From Octopus vulgaris (lineage: Eukaryota), in contig OX597821.1 of NCBI GenBank assembly GCA_951406725.2, positions 10,664,001-10,728,000 of the forward strand: a DNA stretch of 64,000 bases, in the 5' to 3' direction. Shown here in pieces: positions 9,043 to 57,403 of this stretch. The position numbers were made by a program, and so were the translations under genes. Each line of letters starts with the position of its first letter. Position 1 is the stretch's first letter. The notes beneath the pieces were generated by a model. The model saw only the letters and a list, made by a program, of their open reading frames with translations, made no database searches and had not been told where the DNA came from.

Positions 9043-9215
9043 GTTATTCGGGGTTAACCACAGTATATATATATATATATATATATAAGTTAGGTACAAT
9101 AAATTCAGGGTGAATACTTGATAAACGTAAGCACCTGTATATGACAGCTAGTAGCATAGGTGTTAGGATATATGTATCAAATGAAATAAATGAAAAACAA
9201 GATCCATAAGATGTT

Positions 9216-9308
9216 GCAGTACATATGTTTCGGGCTTTATAGAACAACTTATTTTTACATCAATGCATAATCGATATAACAGCTAGATCAAAAGCCTTCT
9301 TCAGCCGT
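9216..9308 (-). ncRNA. Type I hammerhead ribozyme motif (left arm)
   Basis: Minus strand reads ACGG-CTGAAGA-AGGCTTT...AAAGCCC-GAAA-CATATG-TA-CTGC. Confidence 0.75.
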
Positions 9309-9981
9309 GTGCCATTGCTACACCAAAGACTTGTATCACGTTATAAAAGGTTTGAGAAAAAACCGAGTATCATTGGAAAAGTATGTTTGTAAATCTTCAC
9401 AGGCGTACATGGTATTATTAGACTCCAAAACAAATCGTCCATACAGTTTTTTCACTCGATATAGAATGAATACTGTGTAGATTACTTCATATAAGGGAAG
9501 GAATTGGATGTTGAGAGAAAGAGGAAAGGAGAGGGAGGGGATGAAAAATTTAATGAAGTTGCGATCACAAAAACGAAAATATATAAATATAAACATAATT
9601 ATGACGTCCTTTTTATGTTTATATACTTATATTTTTACATTTTTATTATATTTTATATTTATTATTATATTTATTATTATCCTTTATAATTATGTTTATA
9701 TTTATATATATTTTCTTTTTTGTGATCGCAACTTCATTAAAGTTTCATCACCCTCACCCTCCTTTCCTCTTTCCCTCAACATCCAATTCATTCCCTTATA
9801 TGAAGCAATCTACCCAGTATTCATTCTATATCGAGTGAAAAAACGGTATGGACGATTTGTTTTGGTGTCTAATAATGCCATGTACGCCTGTGAAGATTTA
9901 CAAACATACTTTCCGAATGATACTCGGTTTTTTCTCAAACCTTTGATAACGTGATACAAGTCTTTGGTGTACAAATGACAC

Positions 9982-10074
9982 GCGGCTGAAGAAGGCTTTT
10001 GATCTAGCTGTTCTATCGATTATGCATTGATGTAAAAATAAGTTGTTCTATAAAGCCCGAAACATATGTACCGC
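9982..10074 (+). ncRNA. Type I hammerhead ribozyme motif (right arm)
   Basis: Helix I GCGG/CCGC; CTGAAGA core; long helix II (GGCTTT/AAAGCC with distal ATCGAT/ATTGAT); GAAA; palindromic helix III CATATG; GTA triplet. Confidence 0.82.
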
Positions 10075-10110
10075 AACATCCTTTGCGTCTTGTTTTTCAT
10101 TTATTTCATT

Positions 10111-10170
<60 letters not shown>

Positions 10171-21339: not shown

Positions 21340-22915
21340 ATAAAACTTTCCGTGAATAAATGGTAAAGTCTGCTGCAGATACAGACGACAGAATGATTTA
21401 TAAAAAAACAAAGCCATCTCCATTTGAAGAGGAATATTCTAGGGTGACATGCTTTTTCAACTCATTTTCTGCTTGGCACTGACACCTTTATCTAAGATGC
21501 TAAACACATCTGGATGTGGTTACATCTGTTACGGCAAAAGAATCAACCATATCTTGTATATGGATGATTTAAAAGTGTATGCTACAAATGATAAACAGCT
21601 GGAAACTTTACGACATACAATACATGGATTTACTAAAGAGATAAATATGAAATTCGGCTTAGAAAATGCGGCAACGGAACCTTGAGAAGAGGAAAACTAG
21701 TTAAGAGTAACAACATCACATTGGATAAAGCAAGGGAAATAAGAGAATTGGGCCAAAGCCAGACATGCAAATACTTAGAAAGCAATTAACTACATACGAT
21801 GCAACATTCACAAATGAAAGGCAAATTAAGGAAGGAATACTATAGGTGAGTTACATTAGTACTAAAAACAGAGCTCAATGCGAATAACAGATAAGTTTCA
21901 ACACTCTAGCCTTCCCAGTTGTAATTTACAGCTAAAATTGTTTAACTGGAATCTAAATAAACAAGAAAGCAAGCAAAATAATGACAGGATTTAGGATGCA
22001 CCACCCAAATTCAGATATAGAAATGTTATACAAAGGTGGTAGAGGCGTTATACAGCTAGGAAAATATTAAACATTACTACTACTATATTATTGCAGAAAT
22101 ACATACATATGAAGCCAGGTAAACTGACACAAATAACCACAAAACACGAATAAAACAAAACAAAAATGTTCTCAGTTTTTAAGAAGAAGACAAATAAACA
22201 AATAAAGGTCATAGTATCTAACAAGAAAAACTTGAAGTAACAAAAGCTGTAAATCAACTGAAATGCAAACTAAGCAATAACAGCAATGGATCATGATGAA
22301 ACGATGGTAATAAAAACCCGTATATGGCAAATATTGGGTTAAGATAAACGGAAAAGAAATAGACAAAGCAAAATCTTAAAGATGTTGAGAAGTCTCAGGA
22401 TTCAAAGTAGAGACTGAAGGTTGTTTAATTGCAGCGTTCCCACCAGAAATCACCATAAACATTATGAAAATCAATAAAATTACTGCAGGATATGTAGTGA
22501 TGGAGAAGAAACAATATGTCGCATTATCTCTGACTGCCCAGTGGCGGCTAAGAAGTGATATATTCACAGAAATGATAGAATTGGGACCTATATACGCTAA
22601 CACTATGGAATAACAACAGGAAATATATGGTATGGACACATGCCAGAAAAGATCACAGAAAAATGAGAATGCAACCATACTCTTGGATATGATAATACAC
22701 ACAGATAGAGAAATCAGGTGTCATTGGACGGATATAGTTGTCAGAGATCACCCAGAAAAAATGCTTTTTACTCGATGTATCAATGTCCACAGATTACAGC
22801 GTTTCTCTAAAAGAAACGGAGAAACTTTCAAAATACAAACATTTGGAAATAGTGGTAACTCGAATGTGGCGCCTAAAAACAGAAACAATTTCAATTATAG
22901 AAGATGCATTAGGTA
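21340..22915 (+). mobile_element. Dong/R4-clade non-LTR retrotransposon relic (RT plus RLE endonuclease), 5'-truncated pseudogene
   Basis: RGIF*GDMLFQLIFCLALTPLS, INHILYMDDLKVYA and MKFGLE RT motifs; C-terminal TDREIRCHWTDIVVRDH...CFLLDVS...EKLSKYKHLEIVVTRMWRLKT RLE region; many stops and frameshifts. Confidence 0.9.
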
Positions 22916-25900
22916 TATATAATTAACAGCCATATATTGCTTAATTACAAATAAAAGATGCCATTGGAAAATGATACAGGAGCAAATTAGTTTTCCTGCC
23001 GTATCTAACATTAAAACATCGACTCACTTAAATTCCTTTTTGAAGGAGAAATAAGGAGCAACTGAGGAAGTTTAAATTAGATGTTTACTGATAATCAGTC
23101 TCTTTTTACCATTATAGCCGCAATATTAGCTGTGCTGAAAAGACTAATCATCAAATGCGTTCCAACCGTGAACAATTTAACTTGCAAATCTTTTGACCGT
23201 GTTCAGCTTTGCTCTATAGCTTAACATTTCTACTGGTAATAATGTTTTTACGCTTGATGGTTATATTACTATATTTTATTATTATCATTATACTGGAATG
23301 TTTTGTTTGTAAGTAGCTGCTCTTCGGCTACTACTATATTTCTACTAAAATATTCTATGTTGCCTTCTTTTAAATTTGTAGAGGATTCTAAATTACGTCT
23401 TTCTACTCAACAGTAGTAGGTGTTGACTGGTGTGTATGACTATTTACTGGAAATGACGGCCAAAGTTAGTATCTAATACAGTTGGCCACAATATTTTCTC
23501 CTTACAGATCAGCCGTCTTATATAGTCATGCGAGAAGCAGAAAGCCTGCTGTCCGTTAGATACTCATGCTGCACATTCCGGAATGCTCGCAGTATCATCT
23601 TGCTCGTTTTTAACCACTGTACTAAAGACGCCATAAAATGAGCAACTGATACTAAATGGTAGTCAAAGCAACCATGCAAGTGAGTACCTTCGACTAGAGA
23701 AAGCCACATACTTGTTGGGCATTACACCATTTGTAACTAAGGTCCAAAGGAATAGCAGTTTTAGGTGGCCACATCGGCATTTATTCATCTGGGTATCGGT
23801 GAAACCTAACACAAATCAGATGAAAATAAATCCCTTACTTATATATATAGCCTCGCAAGTCTTGCCATATTCTGTCTCAGGCTTGAGGCCCTTTATAAGA
23901 GTCATTATCCTTGTATCCTAGAAAATATTAGTTGCTTTGTGCATTCTTGTCAGTGTTGTAATAACTCATGACTGTTTGAGTTGTTCAAGATTCTCTTGAT
24001 ATTGTATCTTCCAGGTATCATTCCCTAGCGCTCTACAACTAAGAGATGCGTCTCAGCATGAAATTAGTGCAAACAACATTGACCACACTTCAAACTTTTT
24101 GAGATCGCCATCTTCACGAACACGTACAAAGAAGCATATTCATTAACTGACCTATACAGTATATAGCCTTTGAATGACACTATCACAAGTTGTGTTCATC
24201 TTCCTGAAGAACGTCTTGATTTTTTCGTCCCTTACTTTACCATGTAGAACTGAAGGGATCCTGATGACAATGCAACGAAGAGTATGAACATTTCCTGATA
24301 TTCCATGCATTTTGGATAGCTTCCTCCACATAGTGCAGCTGATGTGTTGTAAACCCACTGACACGGTGAGTGCATTTCGGCGTATTGAAATCGGGTGGTT
24401 GTTGTCTAGGAGGCGTTTTTTGATTAAGGAAAATTTGAAAATCGGCAAGGCCTATTCGGAATTTCTGATATAGCGTTTCTTTACATATACCGTTTCTTTT
24501 AATATATATTTCATTTCTATATCTTTCACTTTAATTTTTCCTTTTCTGCTAGCATCACGATTTTGTTTACTTACTCACATTTTCTGAAACTCCAGTTAGA
24601 AACTAAATATTCTACTAAACTAAACAGCTTGCTCCTTTCTGTTATTTAGAAATTTGTATTTAAAATGATATTCCTAAATTAATGCAGCGATAGCTAATAA
24701 TAGGAGAAATCTTTGTTTGTGATTTTAGTTTTGAAATTGGAACCACAAGTTTTAGTTTACGAATGGATTAAAATGAAGTCTTAAACTTGCACAAATTATG
24801 CAACAAGTGGACACGGAAAGCAACGAGAGAAAATAAGGGTAAATAGTATGCCACAAAAAAAAAAGAAAGAATGCAAGTAAGATAAGGTAAGAAATAGAGA
24901 AAGATAGTAAAGAACTGCAAAATTGGGGATAATATTAGAGTAGTAGAGAGAGTAACGTCAAAAATAGATAACATATTTATTTTTAAAAAGCTGTAAAGGA
25001 CAAGGAAAACATATCAGACAATATCTGAAGGAGTATCAGGAAAAGAAAGTAAAAGTAAAACAGAGACCCGACTCCGTGGATCTACCAAAGGAGTTTATTT
25101 CTACATACAGAAGAAAGACGGAAGTGATACATTTCCCAAACACATTCGTATTGTTTCAAATGTATGATTAATATTTACCACACTTTAAACGTCATCAGTT
25201 TTTATATGCATGCTTTATTTACATTATTTACAATTGAAGAAGCAGTACTAAACTGTCGCAACTTTGCGACAAGCATCAAGCGCATTCCATATTTGGGCAT
25301 TGGAGATAGCCATAAAGATAACAAAAGCTAAGGGAGATGAACTAAGGTAGAAATTGGGACAGGTAGTAGAAAAAGCGAAGCTTCCCAAACCAAACATCAC
25401 TAAGGAAGAAACTTTCGCTATCAAAAGTCTACACTGTCACTACAGAATGGCAATTCCATCATAATACTTCCAGCAGACAAGGGAATTGCTGCAGCGGTGA
25501 TGAACAAGTCTGACTACTCGGAAAAACTGGCAAGTCTTACAAGTGATGTTAGCTACAGCAAAGTAAAGAAAGACCCTACTTTGAAAACAGAGAGGAAGTT
25601 GTCCCAGATCTTGATCAAGAACAAGGATCACTTTACACTAATGAAGTACAGACAACTGACTCAACAGTACAGTAAACTACCACACATGTACGGTCTTCCT
25701 GTGATTCACAAGGATGGTATTCCGTTCAGAACTATAGTGAGCTGAAGAGGTTCAGCTTGTCATCCACTGAGCCGCTTCCTTGTGGATATAATCAGTCCAT
25801 TAGCGGGAAAGTCAACATCGTACGTGAAGAATTCCACCCATTGAATCCAACCAGATGGTGAGTTCAGATGTGATAAGTCTGTTCACCAAAGTCCCAACTT

Positions 25901-27029
25901 GTGAAACACTATCCGTGATTCAAGAAAAAATAGTGACAGACACCCATCTAAAAGAACGCACTAGTATACCAATCAGAAACTTGATGGAAATGTTGAAATT
26001 CTGTGTAGAAACTACCTACTTCAGTATGGACGCTAATATATATCGATAGTAAGAGGGTATATCTATGGGTTCACTATTATCACCGATAATAGCCAATATA
26101 TACATGGAAAACTTAGAGAATTGGGCTTTAGGATCAATAGCACTAAAACCAACCCTATGGCTGCAATATGTTGATGACACCTTCATACTCGGCCTCGCCA
26201 GGAAGATGTCTAAATGTTGTTAGATCATGTGAACTCAATAACGACATCCACGCAGTTCACAATGGAAAAAAGAAAAAGACAATCAGCTTACATTCCTGGA
26301 CGTATTAATAACACGCGCCAAGTATAGACTCAGGACATCCGTAGACCGCAAGCCGACCTTCACTGGACGAGGCCTCAGTTTCAACTCCCACCATCCATAC
26401 AGTGCAAAGATAGAGATTGCTCAGTGCCTAAAACATCGAACAATGAATATAAGTAGCGATCGTGATATCCACCACGAAGAAATCATCAAGCTTAGTAACA
26501 ATCTATTAAGCGACAACTACCCCAAAAGCATACTCTCCACTCCAGTTATGAAGAAAAGAGAGGATGAAACCAATAAACTCTCCACAGTCTGTTTGCCCTA
26601 TATGAAAGGCCTCTCCGAAAGGATACAAAAGATTTGTGGCCCATATGACATCAGGACTATATACAAATGTAATACAACACTTCGCAAATATCTCCTTCAA
26701 GTAAAACCACTAATAGAAGGGAATATGCCTAAGAACTGCATGTACTCTATCCCATGCAGCTGTAAGATGTGGAGATATTCATAAATCGGGTATAGCGATC
26801 ATGTATGGAAAAATGGAGTCTACCTGCCCCTCTGGGATGAAGTTAAAATGATAGACAGAGAACATCACTGGAAAATACGAAAACTAAAAGAACCAGCACG
26901 TATACTAGGACACAACAACCTCCTAAGCAGACGAAGTGCAGATACGCGCAGCATATGGGAACCGGTATTGAAGAAGGATAGGAGAATATTAGATTTATAA
27001 GCCCTAAAATTCACTCCCTAATTGCCCAC

Positions 27030-27100
27030 GGGCATATGGCGTATTGGTTAAGAACTCGGGTTGCTAACCCCAAGATCTGAGTTCGATTCTAGGCAGTGAC
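27030..27100 (+). promoter_or_regulatory. tRNA-like segment with Pol III A and B boxes inside the PLE 3' region
   Basis: GGGCATATGGCGTATTGG (A box), anticodon-like stem-loop CGGG-TTGCTAA-CCCC, GAGTTCGATTC (B box); starts about 30 nt after the apparent ORF stop at 26998-27000. Confidence 0.75.
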
Positions 27101-27152
27101 GTGAACAATAACAATACCTTGGGAATGAGAACCCAGGTTCGAAATTCTCCAA

Positions 27153-27200
27153 GACACCTGATGAAAGCTGGAGGGAATATAGCAGCCGAAACGGTGTGTT
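27153..27200 (+). ncRNA. Minimal type I hammerhead of the PLE pseudo-LTR (this copy probably mutated)
   Basis: GACAC-CTGATGA-AAGCTG...CAGCC-GAAA-CGGT-GTGTT; helix I GACAC/GTGTT, helix II GCTG/CAGC. The position expected to be U16.1 is G. Confidence 0.75.
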
Positions 27201-28249
27201 AACAACAAACATGATGAGGAAAAAATAGCAGTCGATTGTAAATAATGTAATTAATGTACATAAGTCCTCATCTCTTAAATATAGAACTGTATGTATGATT
27301 TAGTCAAAAGATGGAAGACAGCCTCATACCTTTTCACAGAGCCTCCGATACTGGAGACGTAATACGTGCGAATAATTGGAATGAGCGTCTTCTGCTAAAA
27401 GCAGCGAACGACTTGCTGCCGCTGATAAAACTCGAACACTAAATACAGTAAGTCTAGCAGCTTAGAAAGTATTGTATGTATGACATCAACTTCGTTATAT
27501 AACTGGAATTTATAGAAAACGATCAGCAGCATGGAATAAAATTTATTGAATTTTATTACTATTGTGTGCGTGACGTGTAACAGTGACAGGGTCTCGAAGC
27601 TGGTTTGTTAGTGCCACTGGGGGGACAAATGCGTGGTATAATCAAATTAATATTTTTCCAGCTGTCGACGATTATGAATTGGCACTCCAATATTTGACGT
27701 TTGCAAATGGGAGTTACTGAACTGAAAATCAAAACTTAGTTTACACTCTTTTATCAAACAAGACATTGCTACCGTTTCATGGTGGTCAGAGTTAAAACAA
27801 ATTAACTGTCGCCAAATATTGATAACTAGAATTAAGTACATAGAATATATAAATATATATATATATACACACACACACATACATACAAATTCGTTTGCAT
27901 GTGCGATTGAATGTGTACGTGTGTGCATGTACATATGTATATTAGATTTAAAACATGGTATAGTAATTTCTATTCATTATCATAATTTATGTAACCCGTG
28001 ATGGCATAAAATGAAATAGTTATCCTTTGTGATCTTTTTTATGCCTTTCAGTCCTGTGTGTAATGTGTTTCATAACTTCGATAAACAACGTCTGCACGGC
28101 TAATTAACCGCACATCTAATTAGTTTCGGCTCAGATGCCTAAAACCTTCTCCTTTTAGTCTAACTTTCTTCAATTATTGTTTTGAAATATATAATACAGA
28201 TAAAAGAAAATAGAATACACACATTAAATTAATAAACAAAATATTACTA

Positions 28250-28433
28250 TTATTTACATTTGACCTTGGTTCTCATTCCAAAGCTATTTTTCGATGTTAT
28301 TATTATTCTGGTCACTGCCTGGAATCGAACCCGGAATCTTGGGGTTAGTAGCCCGTGCTCTTAATCACTAAACTGCATGCCCGTCACATGGAAATAATGT
28401 ACATACTTCCTCATTTCTTAAATATAGAACTGT
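28250..28433 (-). mobile_element. 184-bp non-autonomous derivative of the PLE pseudo-LTR (inverted tRNA head plus sense tail)
   Basis: 28264-28383 is the reverse complement of 27029-27140; 28392-28433 matches 27240-27291; perfect 12-bp TSD AAAATATTACTA at 28238-28249 and 28434-28445. Confidence 0.88.
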
Positions 28434-31400
28434 AAAATATTACTAACATTTTTGAATTTAGAAAAAGAAATAAGCTCACATATAGCTTTTAAATATGAAA
28501 TTAATAACACAATAATTCAAGATTGTTAAAATCTATTTATATGTAATTTACATAATAATATATAAATTAAAGACATGGATATAATATTGTGGTGTGTAGA
28601 ACACGATAGTATCGGTTGATTTACATAATCAATAATTCGTTTCTGGTTATTCGATTAATAAAAAAACAAAAGTCGATGTTCACTCCGGTGGGTAATACAC
28701 AAAGATTTACTATTGCCCCAAAACAGGCTTTGTTTGCCTGTCACCTTAACTTTTATGATAATTCCTCAATACTGGTATGGCTTTTCTGTAGTAAATGTAA
28801 TTTATGACTAACGTATGACGATCTCTTTCTAACCACAGATCGTGCGCTGGAAATTTGTTGTTCACTTTTTCAACTTTATGAGCATAGCTGTATATTACAT
28901 ACTCTAGGAGTAGAGAGCTACAAAGTTCATGAAATAATTATATCTGATGTTGGGTTAATGTTAGCAAGTTAATGTTAGCAAGGTGAGGTGGCGAATTCCT
29001 TTGCAAGCACATCTACACAGAAATAATAAAATGTGTAGTTTATTTGAATGGTATTTAAACTAAGAAAATAATGAATCAACACTTTAATTTCATGAAGTAA
29101 TTGAAACAATGTATGGTATGTTTTACAGAAATCTGCTTCACAGCCTACTTATTCCTCTTGGTAGAAAAAAACCTATCTTTAAAAAACGTTTTCTTTATAA
29201 CATATAATTTTCACATATTTTCACATTTTTTCTGATACTTTTTTTCACAAGACTACACTTGAATATTGAATTGTCAGACACTTCATCATGGCAGTATATA
29301 ACTGATTAACGTTAGTTTTATATTTTCATCCACATGTCAACATATTTATGTCCTGTCAATTACGTTTATGTCAAAATTTAGCTGCAGTTGAATACTGGGA
29401 AGGAATACGTCTTATTCTGTATGTGTGTGTTGAAATGAGTGAAATCATGTCTTCAATGCATGTATCAGTTTAAATAATTGAAGTCAGTGTGTCATAATCC
29501 AGTGAAAATTTCTAACAATCATTATAATCTACTTCATCTTTAATAACGACCAGGAAATTCTACATCTGCAGAAGAATGTAACGATGGATTTTGTTTTCTG
29601 AAGAACTCTGCAGTTAATCCTTGGAACATGACAGCTTCAATAATCTGCATATAATTATAAGCCCTTTTTATTGGCACCATTCTTTTGCATTTTAAATTTG
29701 AGATCTATTCTGATCAATGCAAGGTAATCATTGGCCATATTGGATGGCATATTTATGGTAGAATGTAGTTCAACCATATCAGACATGTCTTGTTATATGT
29801 TTTACGTAGCTATTCACTGAATATACCTGAGTCTCCATCCATATATAAATTTCAAAACAAAAAAACAGTCATGCTTTGTGATATGCAAGACATTGTATAA
29901 AATTCTATTGCATACTTTAACAGGATTGTTCTTGTGTTAATGCTTATGAATATATCTGGCAAAGTAATTCGTAGTGAAAGCTGAATTGTTTCATTCAGAA
30001 ATGAAAAATTTACTGGAGTATGTTTGTAAATTTAAAGGTTGGTATTATATATGCTATTTATGTATCTATATTCAAATTCGATATTGTTATTTCACAATTA
30101 ATTTTTGTTTCGTGTGGCGTCTATCACAACTAAAATCTTTCATTCGAAATCCAAGTAATGTATACACTTGATATACGTAATGTGTTTACATGAACATGAA
30201 TGAATGTCTAGTGAGACTCCAATAATTTGATGAATAATTTGTCAATAAAAATCTAGCGAACAACAAATTCTTGTATTTGTTTGCTGAATTCCATACATAT
30301 AGAATAATATTATATAATCACAGTATGCAGGGCGTGGATTCATTAGATTAATAGCATTCCAGAAAAAAAAAGGGCCAGGAAGTGACGCCTAACACAACAT
30401 ATGTCTCGTGGGAATATATTTCACATTGGGCGTGTAATTGATTTCCGATATTCCTATCAATGCAGTTTAGCCTCTGTATTGTTACGATCTGGTCTCCAAC
30501 TGCTTGCGTATTTGTTGGATTATGCAAGAATTGAATGCATTGATTTGACGTATATTGCGTAATGTTCTTTGTGCATGTCCCAGTTCCAGTAAAACATTGC
30601 TGATCAATGGTGCGGGTTTATCTTTTGTGCATTAACTTCTCACGGGATATAAAGACGGAATATATATTCAACTATTCAATGCAACTCCCTACCGGATATA
30701 CACGGATAAACAGTATATGTGAGTTTGTGTGCATGAGTGTGTACAGAGAGTGAGAGAGAGAGAGACAGAAAAATATATAGATGAATATATAGATATGTAG
30801 ATAGATATATGAATATGTATATATGTGGGTGGATGGTTGACTATTTGAAGTAACTCGATAATAACAGACTACAAATAAGCATATACAGATATACATAGAG
30901 TGAGACAGGTTCGTGTTCTGTTAAAATATAATCAACAAGAAAGCATTGCATCCAGTGAGTCACAAATATTACTTAATGTATACAGTATAAAGATACGAAC
31001 TATTACTAGTTTCTTGCTCTGGAGACGCAAATTATGGCAGGTTTTAATACCACGCCTTGTGATTGCAAGCAACCCCAATCTCTGAGCACACAATTTATTC
31101 AATTTGCAAATTAAGTAGTTTGTACAAGACGGAACACGATAATAAAAGAGAGGACAGTAGATGAAAACAAGGGAATACAATAATATAAATGTGACGAAAG
31201 AAAATTATAGCTATGTTGCTTTGAGTATCAAGGTGTTAATCTAACACTGGAAGCAGGTGAACAATGTTTCGGTTAGAGTTATTCTTGAGGGTAGACCGTA
31301 TCATCGAAAACACTAGTTAGGGTGTGCATGTGTATATGAACGCTTTTCTGTATGTATATACACACAGATACGCACACACAAACACGTACACTCATACACA

Positions 31401-56615: not shown

Positions 56616-57403
56616 CAATTCCAGCCGAATTTAACGAATATATATGAAGACTGTGTAATACTGCATATAATATTTGTAAACAAACCAGAAAGGCTTTGTA
56701 AATTACGGAAGGAAAGCTACTAAGGATGATTCATAGTATGATAATCGGATGCGCAAGGAACCGGGTTAGAGCTGATTTGTGGGTTCGATTCTGGCTGGGG
56801 TTAGCTCATTATTTTTCGGTCATTTGTATTTAAAAATTGTCGCTTCAAATCGGAGGATACATATTATTATGATACATCCTTAAATGTATTTTATTATATC
56901 ATAAGTCACTGCATGTAAATATGCAACAGTATACAATTATTATGAATAAGCTAACTGGATATCGCTCTTTATATCCTAATTAGTCAAAAAATAAACTGTC
57001 AATTCCTATGGGACTTAAAGTAATTTTACCATGTTACACATCCTCTCACAGAACCAGCCTTGACATTTTACATACAGAAATTCGTTTTGTATCTAGATAT
57101 TATATTCCAGTACTTACTATATATATATATGTATATACATATATATATTTGTGTGCGTGTGTGCGTGTGTTCGCGCACGCGTGTGCGTGCGAGCGCACGC
57201 GTGTGCGTGCGAGCGCGCGATAATTTTTTCTTTTTCTAGAATTACATCTCGAAATTCAATTTTTTTTTTTACAGGACGCAATTTATGCATAAGCTACTCG
57301 ATAACACTAAGGCTGCAGCCCAGAACAAGAGTCTGACGTGATTGTGTACCCATTTCGTATGTGTGTGATTATGCATATAATGTGTGTGTGTGTTTGATTT
57401 TGT

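Follow-up and report, generated by a model that had tools for sequence, protein, structure and literature searches.

A 184-bp insert in the Octopus vulgaris genome with the anatomy of a Penelope-type pseudo-LTR copy and a tRNA-like head

The 184-bp insert described in the present study is, as read from its sequence, a scrambled copy of the predicted 3' end module (tRNA-like head, spacer, minimal hammerhead, and tail) of a decayed Penelope-type element that lies 1 kb upstream in the same window, namely, the 64,000-nucleotide stretch of O. vulgaris contig OX597821.1 that was analyzed. The single insert is real, old, and mechanistically ordinary Penelope debris. What is noteworthy is that a pseudo-LTR with a hammerhead, found at very high depth, opens with a putative tRNA-like head, a variant that would make the unit a Penelope-mobilized SINE.

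Anatomy of the insert and of its Penelope-type neighbor

The insert is bracketed by a 12-mer for which the 64-kb window contains two exact occurrences and no more, starting at 28238 and 28434. The two copies are identical at 12/12 positions and their identity breaks on both sides, leaving 184 bp (28250-28433) between them, and the perfect 12-bp target duplication (TSD) that the earlier note had claimed is thus confirmed. No other exact 12-mer repeat with a spacing of 100-300 bp was detected within 22000-31000, and the chance of a 12/12 match at one fixed pair of sites is approximately 1.6e-7. The insert contains no ORF. Its order is TSD, inverted arm (15-nt terminal segment, 94-nt gap, spacer, and head to the 5' edge), 4-nt microhomology, sense arm, and TSD (Table 1), which bears out the earlier description of an inverted head and spacer with the hammerhead segment deleted, followed by a sense tail.

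The sole other match to the insert in the window is located at the 3' end of the 2-kb element (25215-27290), and no third copy of the module was found there. In the alignment of the inverted head and spacer (28263-28384) with 27028-27138, 90 positions were identical, 21 were mismatched, and 11 gap letters were needed, and the sense match extended over 28388-28434 and 27245-27291. The sense arm itself starts at 28381-28383, not at 28388, and is approximately 53 nt long.

Regarding the 2-kb element, its ORF (25238-27000) is interrupted by stops and frameshifts, and one of the five ORF pieces gave a relevant match, to RVT_1, at a level (E 1.5e-5) below the curated cut-off. In a tblastn comparison, a 582-aa relative (P0048) showed 54-70% identity over 25342-26982, spanning the RT and the C-terminal endonuclease region, in the latter of which the window copy is short of approximately 23 codons; a more distant relative (P0059) scored 22.4 bits against Pfam GIY-YIG (cut-off 22.6, E 1.5e-4). 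The closest named relative of the ORF is a predicted protein of Octopus sinensis (65%), which, along with the richness of the DNA in microsatellites, suggests an octopus-like host. The predicted order of RT and then endonuclease is the canonical order of Penelope-like elements (PLEs). The ORF stop is followed by 27 nt, the near-palindrome, the tRNA-like head, an (AAC)n linker, the hammerhead motif, and the terminal segment.

The two inserts begin with an identical 9 letters and finish with an identical 17, in agreement with the shared start and end motifs reported previously, and both carry a 36-nt tail past the inverted repeat. With an inverted arm of 23 nt, an equal 36-nt overhang, and a decayed candidate TSD of 9 bp, the 2-kb element thus shows the same design with opposite arm lengths. 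The join between head and spacer is no one-off because it is common to both independent inserts. A poly(A) or simple-repeat 3' end is absent in both window copies, in which the 36-nt tail abuts the TSD.

Three 9-nt repeat units stand ahead of the tail end region in the 2-kb copy (27238-27263), and two are present in the 184-bp copy and in several public contigs. Downstream of an ATG located just 5' of the hammerhead, brief open stretches that change frame extend through the tail (27125-27290). They could represent the decayed remains of an ORF start, as the pseudo-LTR of intact tandem PLEs overlaps the beginning of the ORF. Proteins starting with the module translation were found neither among the 207 fetched nor by a database search.

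Table 1. Positions of the features of the 184-bp insert and the 2-kb element in the window.
Feature	Position	Strand	Remark
Insert: left TSD, 12 bp	28238..28249	+	11/12 A/T
Insert: start of inverted arm	28250..28264	-	15-bp inverted terminal repeat of 28383-28397 (13/15); pseudo-LTR counterpart just upstream of tail
Insert: junction without 94-nt hammerhead segment	28263..28266	-	counterpart 27139-27232; 2-nt GT microhomology
Insert: inverted spacer, (AAT/AAC)n linker	28265..28309	-	loose contig ends at 28297 and 28307 show linker variable
Insert: inverted tRNA-like head	28310..28384	-	B box exact, A box decayed
Insert: 4-nt microhomology, end of inverted head = start of sense arm	28381..28384	.	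one family contig joins sense arm at 28382
Insert: inverted terminal repeat, sense copy	28383..28397	+	
Insert: Penelope-type tail, 36 nt, without poly(A)	28398..28433	+	33/36 vs 27255-27290
Insert: right TSD	28434..28445	+	
2-kb element: left TSD candidate	25206..25214	+	7/9 vs 27291-27299, decayed; p ~0.002 at fixed sites
2-kb element: inverted arm, 23 nt	25215..25237	-	21/23 vs 27232-27254
2-kb element: Penelope-type ORF, decayed	25238..27000	+	5'-truncated; RT and C-terminal endonuclease region; ~23 codons missing
2-kb element: near-palindrome, 12 nt, 5-bp arms, at 5' edge of tRNA-like head	27023..27034	.	apparent head-to-head joins centre there
2-kb element: pseudo-LTR tRNA-like head and spacer	27028..27138	+	27 nt past ORF stop
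2-kb element: minimal type I hammerhead motif	27153..27200	+	loose contig ends at 27146, 27178, and 27180
2-kb element: tail, 36 nt	27255..27290	+	
2-kb element: right TSD candidate	27291..27299	+	

The tRNA-like head and the hammerhead motif

The tRNA-likeness of the putative head is weak but coherent. The 184-bp copy scored 15.7 bits for tRNA in Rfam (E 0.95 over 4227 families; cut-off 29 bits), no Rfam tRNA match was obtained for the upstream copy, and ARAGORN returned no tRNA. The B box is exact in the 184-bp copy and one letter off in the 2-kb copy, while the A box is one letter off in the 2-kb copy and at least three off in the 184-bp copy. A 16-mer of the head falls inside tRNA genes in 39 of 53 viral loci, with an ambiguous isotype match; 18 viral loci from a motif scan are presumed to be chance matches of a 16-mer. 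Fold stability was not significant for the head, hammerhead, or tail (z -0.72 to 2.44). B-box-like motifs at 56782 (+) and 49986 (-) are unrelated to the module family and possibly belong to other tRNA-derived repeats.

A hammerhead descriptor search of the 64 kb gave two matches, the second of which was poorly formed, and no Rfam hammerhead was found at threshold; Rfam miRNA matches were rejected because they fall in a microsatellite at 27850-27950. The motif at 27153-27200 has a bulged base before helix II and a palindromic pair at 15.2-16.2, both of which are listed for such hammerheads (PMC4209133). Since the 2-kb copy departs from the majority letters of the public contigs at G10.1 and U16.1, this predicted hammerhead is likely inactive, and the 184-bp copy lacks the segment altogether (94 nt). 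Elsewhere in the window, 9168-9591 and 9699-10122 form a 424-nt inverted pair, 92% complementary with a TA microsatellite at its end, that looks like another PLE-type inverted insertion; a hammerhead-core-like motif with a long helix II region is located within it near 9985-10063. Among public proteins, five spurious ORFs (P0062, P0103, P0054, P0089, and P0201) fuse a Penelope RT to a region resembling the translated hammerhead and its downstream sequence. The peptides upstream in these ORFs gave no match to the translation of the tRNA head, which may be a lineage-specific addition.

Penelope-type double priming, taken jointly over the three readings considered below (a short RNA, a full-length RNA, and later trimming), very probably produced the insert. 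A tRNA-like head, a 12-bp TSD, and a 5' inversion are features of SINEs and LINEs, and all three would also be expected of a LINE-dependent tRNA SINE that was inverted by twin priming, with the 2-kb element as a Penelope fragment lying beside a SINE. This explanation is disfavored and appears highly improbable: neither copy has a poly(A) or simple-repeat tail, two independent inserts share an inversion start at a constant distance of 36 nt from the end, a Penelope ORF lies between the arms of one of these inserts, the module contains a PLE-type minimal hammerhead, and Penelope RT is fused to a similar hammerhead region in the spurious public ORFs.

Comparison with other genomes and the origin of the insert

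Four of the 24 public sequencing runs listed were compared; contig results came from three of these, and the raw-read run X14, with 7 reads placed, was left out. The earlier note had suggested a search for the empty site; none was found among the joints listed (15 of 249), and the left junction is filled in organisms B and C. The left junction and the junction that lacks the hammerhead are both spanned in organism B (contig 27896-28306; 10 differences) and in organism C (contig 27896-28326; gap-free, 12 differences). In B and C, contigs at 28408-28900 (7 differences each) cover the right TSD and 26 nt of the tail, a stretch below the 31-letter bridging rule, and no piece over the junctions was present among those listed for run X2 (24 of 54,231). 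Because organisms B and C share the filled site, the insert is considered to be old, predating a divergence of 1.4-2.8%.

These contigs also bear on whether the insert was once longer, with two full head-to-head arms or with arms and an ORF, and shrank by microhomology deletions while its TSDs stayed intact. Long palindromes are prone to deletion, microhomology is found at both internal junctions (2 nt and 4 nt), and head-to-head copies appear to exist. The orthologous contigs run unbroken for 57-77 nt through the hammerhead-less junction and break 26 nt into the tail, which weakly hints that the hammerhead-less form is perhaps local and, equally weakly, that its junction does not belong to a high-copy form, as later trimming would have it. 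On the other hand, two deletions would be needed, one of which would have to start exactly at the palindrome center, the hammerhead deletion is already present in B and C, and microhomology joins also arise at insertion (PMC3846280). We therefore regard later trimming as improbable.

Summed contig depth is not a copy number and drops where the window copy has diverged, and was used as a rough ratio only. On this scale, the hammerhead reached approximately 31,000-32,000 times the unique flank, position 26850 reached 8,900-17,600 times, and the RT region reached approximately 700-2,600 times, giving a ratio of 12-44 between the module (hammerhead) and the ORF (RT region); the head region stood at approximately 57,000-75,000 times, a value to which other tRNA-derived repeats may contribute. 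It is thus likely that copies of the module without an ORF are common. Relative to 26634, the final 200 nt of the ORF already show a 6-12-fold greater depth, and the depth of the hammerhead exceeds that of 26850 by a factor of just 1.7-3.7. In all three contig runs, this step of approximately 6-12-fold between 26634 and 26850 was located near 26830, inside the 3' end of the ORF; the step at 26830-27000 may mark an abundant class of approximately 460 bp consisting of the ORF end and the module.

The ends of the family members are also defined. Contigs ending at 27291-27292 numbered 304, 173, and 193 in the three runs and had A/T-rich flanks with an agreement of 0.38-0.40; the module therefore has a fixed 3' end without poly(A), because hundreds of contigs end there with unlike flanks. 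On the 5' side of the head, loose ends at 28370 (212, 172, and 199 contigs) pass through the palindrome and then disagree, and 3 of the 12 joints listed with letters fit a passage from an inverted head into a sense head at 27023-27030, the strand of which was inferred from letter register. A high-copy, dispersed, non-coding unit with defined ends is thus supported, by depth and loose ends, in 3 of the 4 runs. No family member emerged from motif scans, which returned 71 metagenome loci with nothing more than short matches around the motif, the longest of which (47 nt, L042) had an unrelated context, and 0 matches in prokaryote genomes.

The earlier note had also claimed that the non-coding module can insert alone. 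The lack of an ORF in the insert and the probable abundance of ORF-less copies (12-44 times) are in keeping with this view, but one ORF-less copy does not demonstrate independent mobilization because 5' truncation of a full-length RNA or a later deletion between the TSDs would look identical. The former would be the case if the template was the full-length, ORF-bearing RNA and the hairpin at the 5' edge of the head caused copying to stop or fold back, with the module having no transcript of its own. In favor of this reading, the module is physically joined to the ORF as its 3' end, depth climbs stepwise in the 3' direction, including a large increase within the ORF near 26830, and a proposal of self-priming at junction palindromes exists for PLEs (PMC3846280). 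We nevertheless consider a full-length template to be unlikely, though it has some weight, since the inverted arm stops within approximately 2 nt of the expected start of a tRNA gene, the A and B boxes are kept in the upstream copy, and the depth of the head far exceeds that of the flank, even if other tRNA-derived repeats contribute.

The reading that we prefer, with confidence slightly better than even, is that an old copy of the tRNA-headed pseudo-LTR, devoid of an ORF, was written by a Penelope RT-endonuclease from a short RNA, presumably a Pol III transcript, starting at the tRNA-like head. Following the published two-start-site model, the GIY-YIG domain would make two nicks, one per strand and separated by 12 nt, in an A/T-rich target. 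One nick would prime copying from the tail end, yielding a sense arm of approximately 53 nt in the present case, and the other would prime at a second start site 36 nt further in, yielding the inverted arm up to the 5' edge of the head. The two cDNAs would then be joined at the 4-nt microhomology, and gap filling would create the TSD. The 94-nt hammerhead segment may have been lost at the GT microhomology through a template jump or a later deletion. Consistent with this mechanism, the 36-nt tail in both copies falls within the 30-40 nt of PLEs, the same module ends an RT-endonuclease ORF that is 54-70% identical to the 582-aa relative, and the apparent head-to-head joins (3/12 listed) match the palindromic joins of PLEs. 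Against a short RNA, 5' truncation alone enriches 3' ends, the tRNA score is below the cut-off, and the A box of the 184-bp copy has decayed.

Relation to known elements and significance

The insert closely resembles EN+ PLEs, such as Pen2/Pen2a of Adineta vaga (PMC3846280) and PAc of Anolis (PMC11167929; see also PMC8557442), in its inverted 5' pseudo-LTR piece, a 30-40-nt tail at one end, and its TSD; the head-to-head palindrome, pseudo-LTR hammerhead, A/T-rich target, and C-terminal endonuclease are further likenesses to these elements (PMC3846280, PMC11167929, PMC8557442). In A. vaga, an inverted pseudo-LTR, a 31-bp tail, TSDs of 8-10 bp, palindromes at head-to-head joins, microhomology deletions, and solo pseudo-LTRs have been described, and pseudo-LTRs were sufficient for integration in trans (PMC3846280). 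An inverted 5' copy with a 30-40-bp tail has been presented as a general feature of PLEs, for which non-autonomous forms have been reported (PMC8557442). At A/T-rich DNA, both strands are nicked and extended by a PLE protein, which copies from two internal start sites the spacing of which equals the tail, and hammerhead cleavage was dispensable in vitro (PMC11167929). The signature of the insert is already explained because the published architecture and the two-start-site model cover the inverted arm, tail, and TSD. Of the fixed inversion-type signature previously proposed, the fixed shared termini hold, whereas a new mechanism does not follow from what is published Penelope architecture (PMC3846280, PMC8557442, PMC11167929). 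Two differences were noted: unlike the pseudo-LTR of A. vaga with its TATA/Inr-like motifs (PMC3846280), that of octopus opens with a tRNA-like A/B-box head, and the hammerhead has been lost from the 184-bp copy.

The SINE-like repeats Sm-alpha and Sj-alpha of Schistosoma carry a Pol III promoter and a hammerhead (PMC6765202). They resemble the octopus module as short non-coding repeats in which a Pol III-type promoter is followed by a hammerhead, but are tandem with canonical hammerheads, whereas the octopus module is tied to a Penelope ORF, inverted arms, and a 36-nt tail (PMC6765202). Non-autonomous PLEs and retrozymes (Chlamys/MRC1, PMC8557442; Heliconius, PMC6685494; PMC7229834) are similarly ORF-less and high-copy, with the 3' end of an autonomous PLE or a type I hammerhead. 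The excerpts of these papers describe no tRNA head for Chlamys/MRC1, the short non-autonomous Penelopes of Heliconius, or animal retrozymes (PMC8557442, PMC6685494, PMC7229834). Retrozymes are head-to-tail tandems that make circular RNA (PMC7229834), whereas neither window copy is tandem.

We tentatively propose, at somewhat less than even confidence, that the pseudo-LTR of a Penelope lineage in octopus acquired, at its start, a Pol III promoter derived from a tRNA, and that the resulting unit of approximately 265 bp (head, hammerhead, and tail) spread via Penelope, not LINE, enzymes to tens of thousands of copies. The partners normally assigned to SINEs are LINEs. TRNA-derived SINEs of octopus, of the families OK, OR1, and OR2, were reportedly described by Ohshima and Okada in 1994, and the present module is similar to them in its octopus host, putatively tRNA-derived head, and very high copy depth. 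The module of approximately 265 bp may be one of these SINEs; no link between the 1994 SINEs and Penelope or hammerheads was found in the literature searched. The literature search revealed no tRNA-headed or SINE-like Penelope unit in octopus, within a scope that mostly excluded subscription papers and Repbase/SINEBase sequences and is hence no proof of novelty. A tRNA-headed Penelope unit is likewise not described in the excerpts of PMC13282606, PMC8967140, PMC6962438, or PMC10294476.

In the 2026 annotation of the O. vulgaris genome, SINEs account for 11.6% and Penelope-like elements for 6.83%, and most of the recently active SINE families are unclassified (PMC13282606). If the proposed capture is true, part of the well-known SINE expansion of octopus was Penelope-driven, and that part would have to be reassigned to a unit with a tRNA-like head, a hammerhead, and Penelope ends. 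The family behind the insert thus matters more than the single insert. If tens of thousands of short copies exist, they would constitute a natural data set on two-start-site Penelope integration and on the need for the hammerhead.
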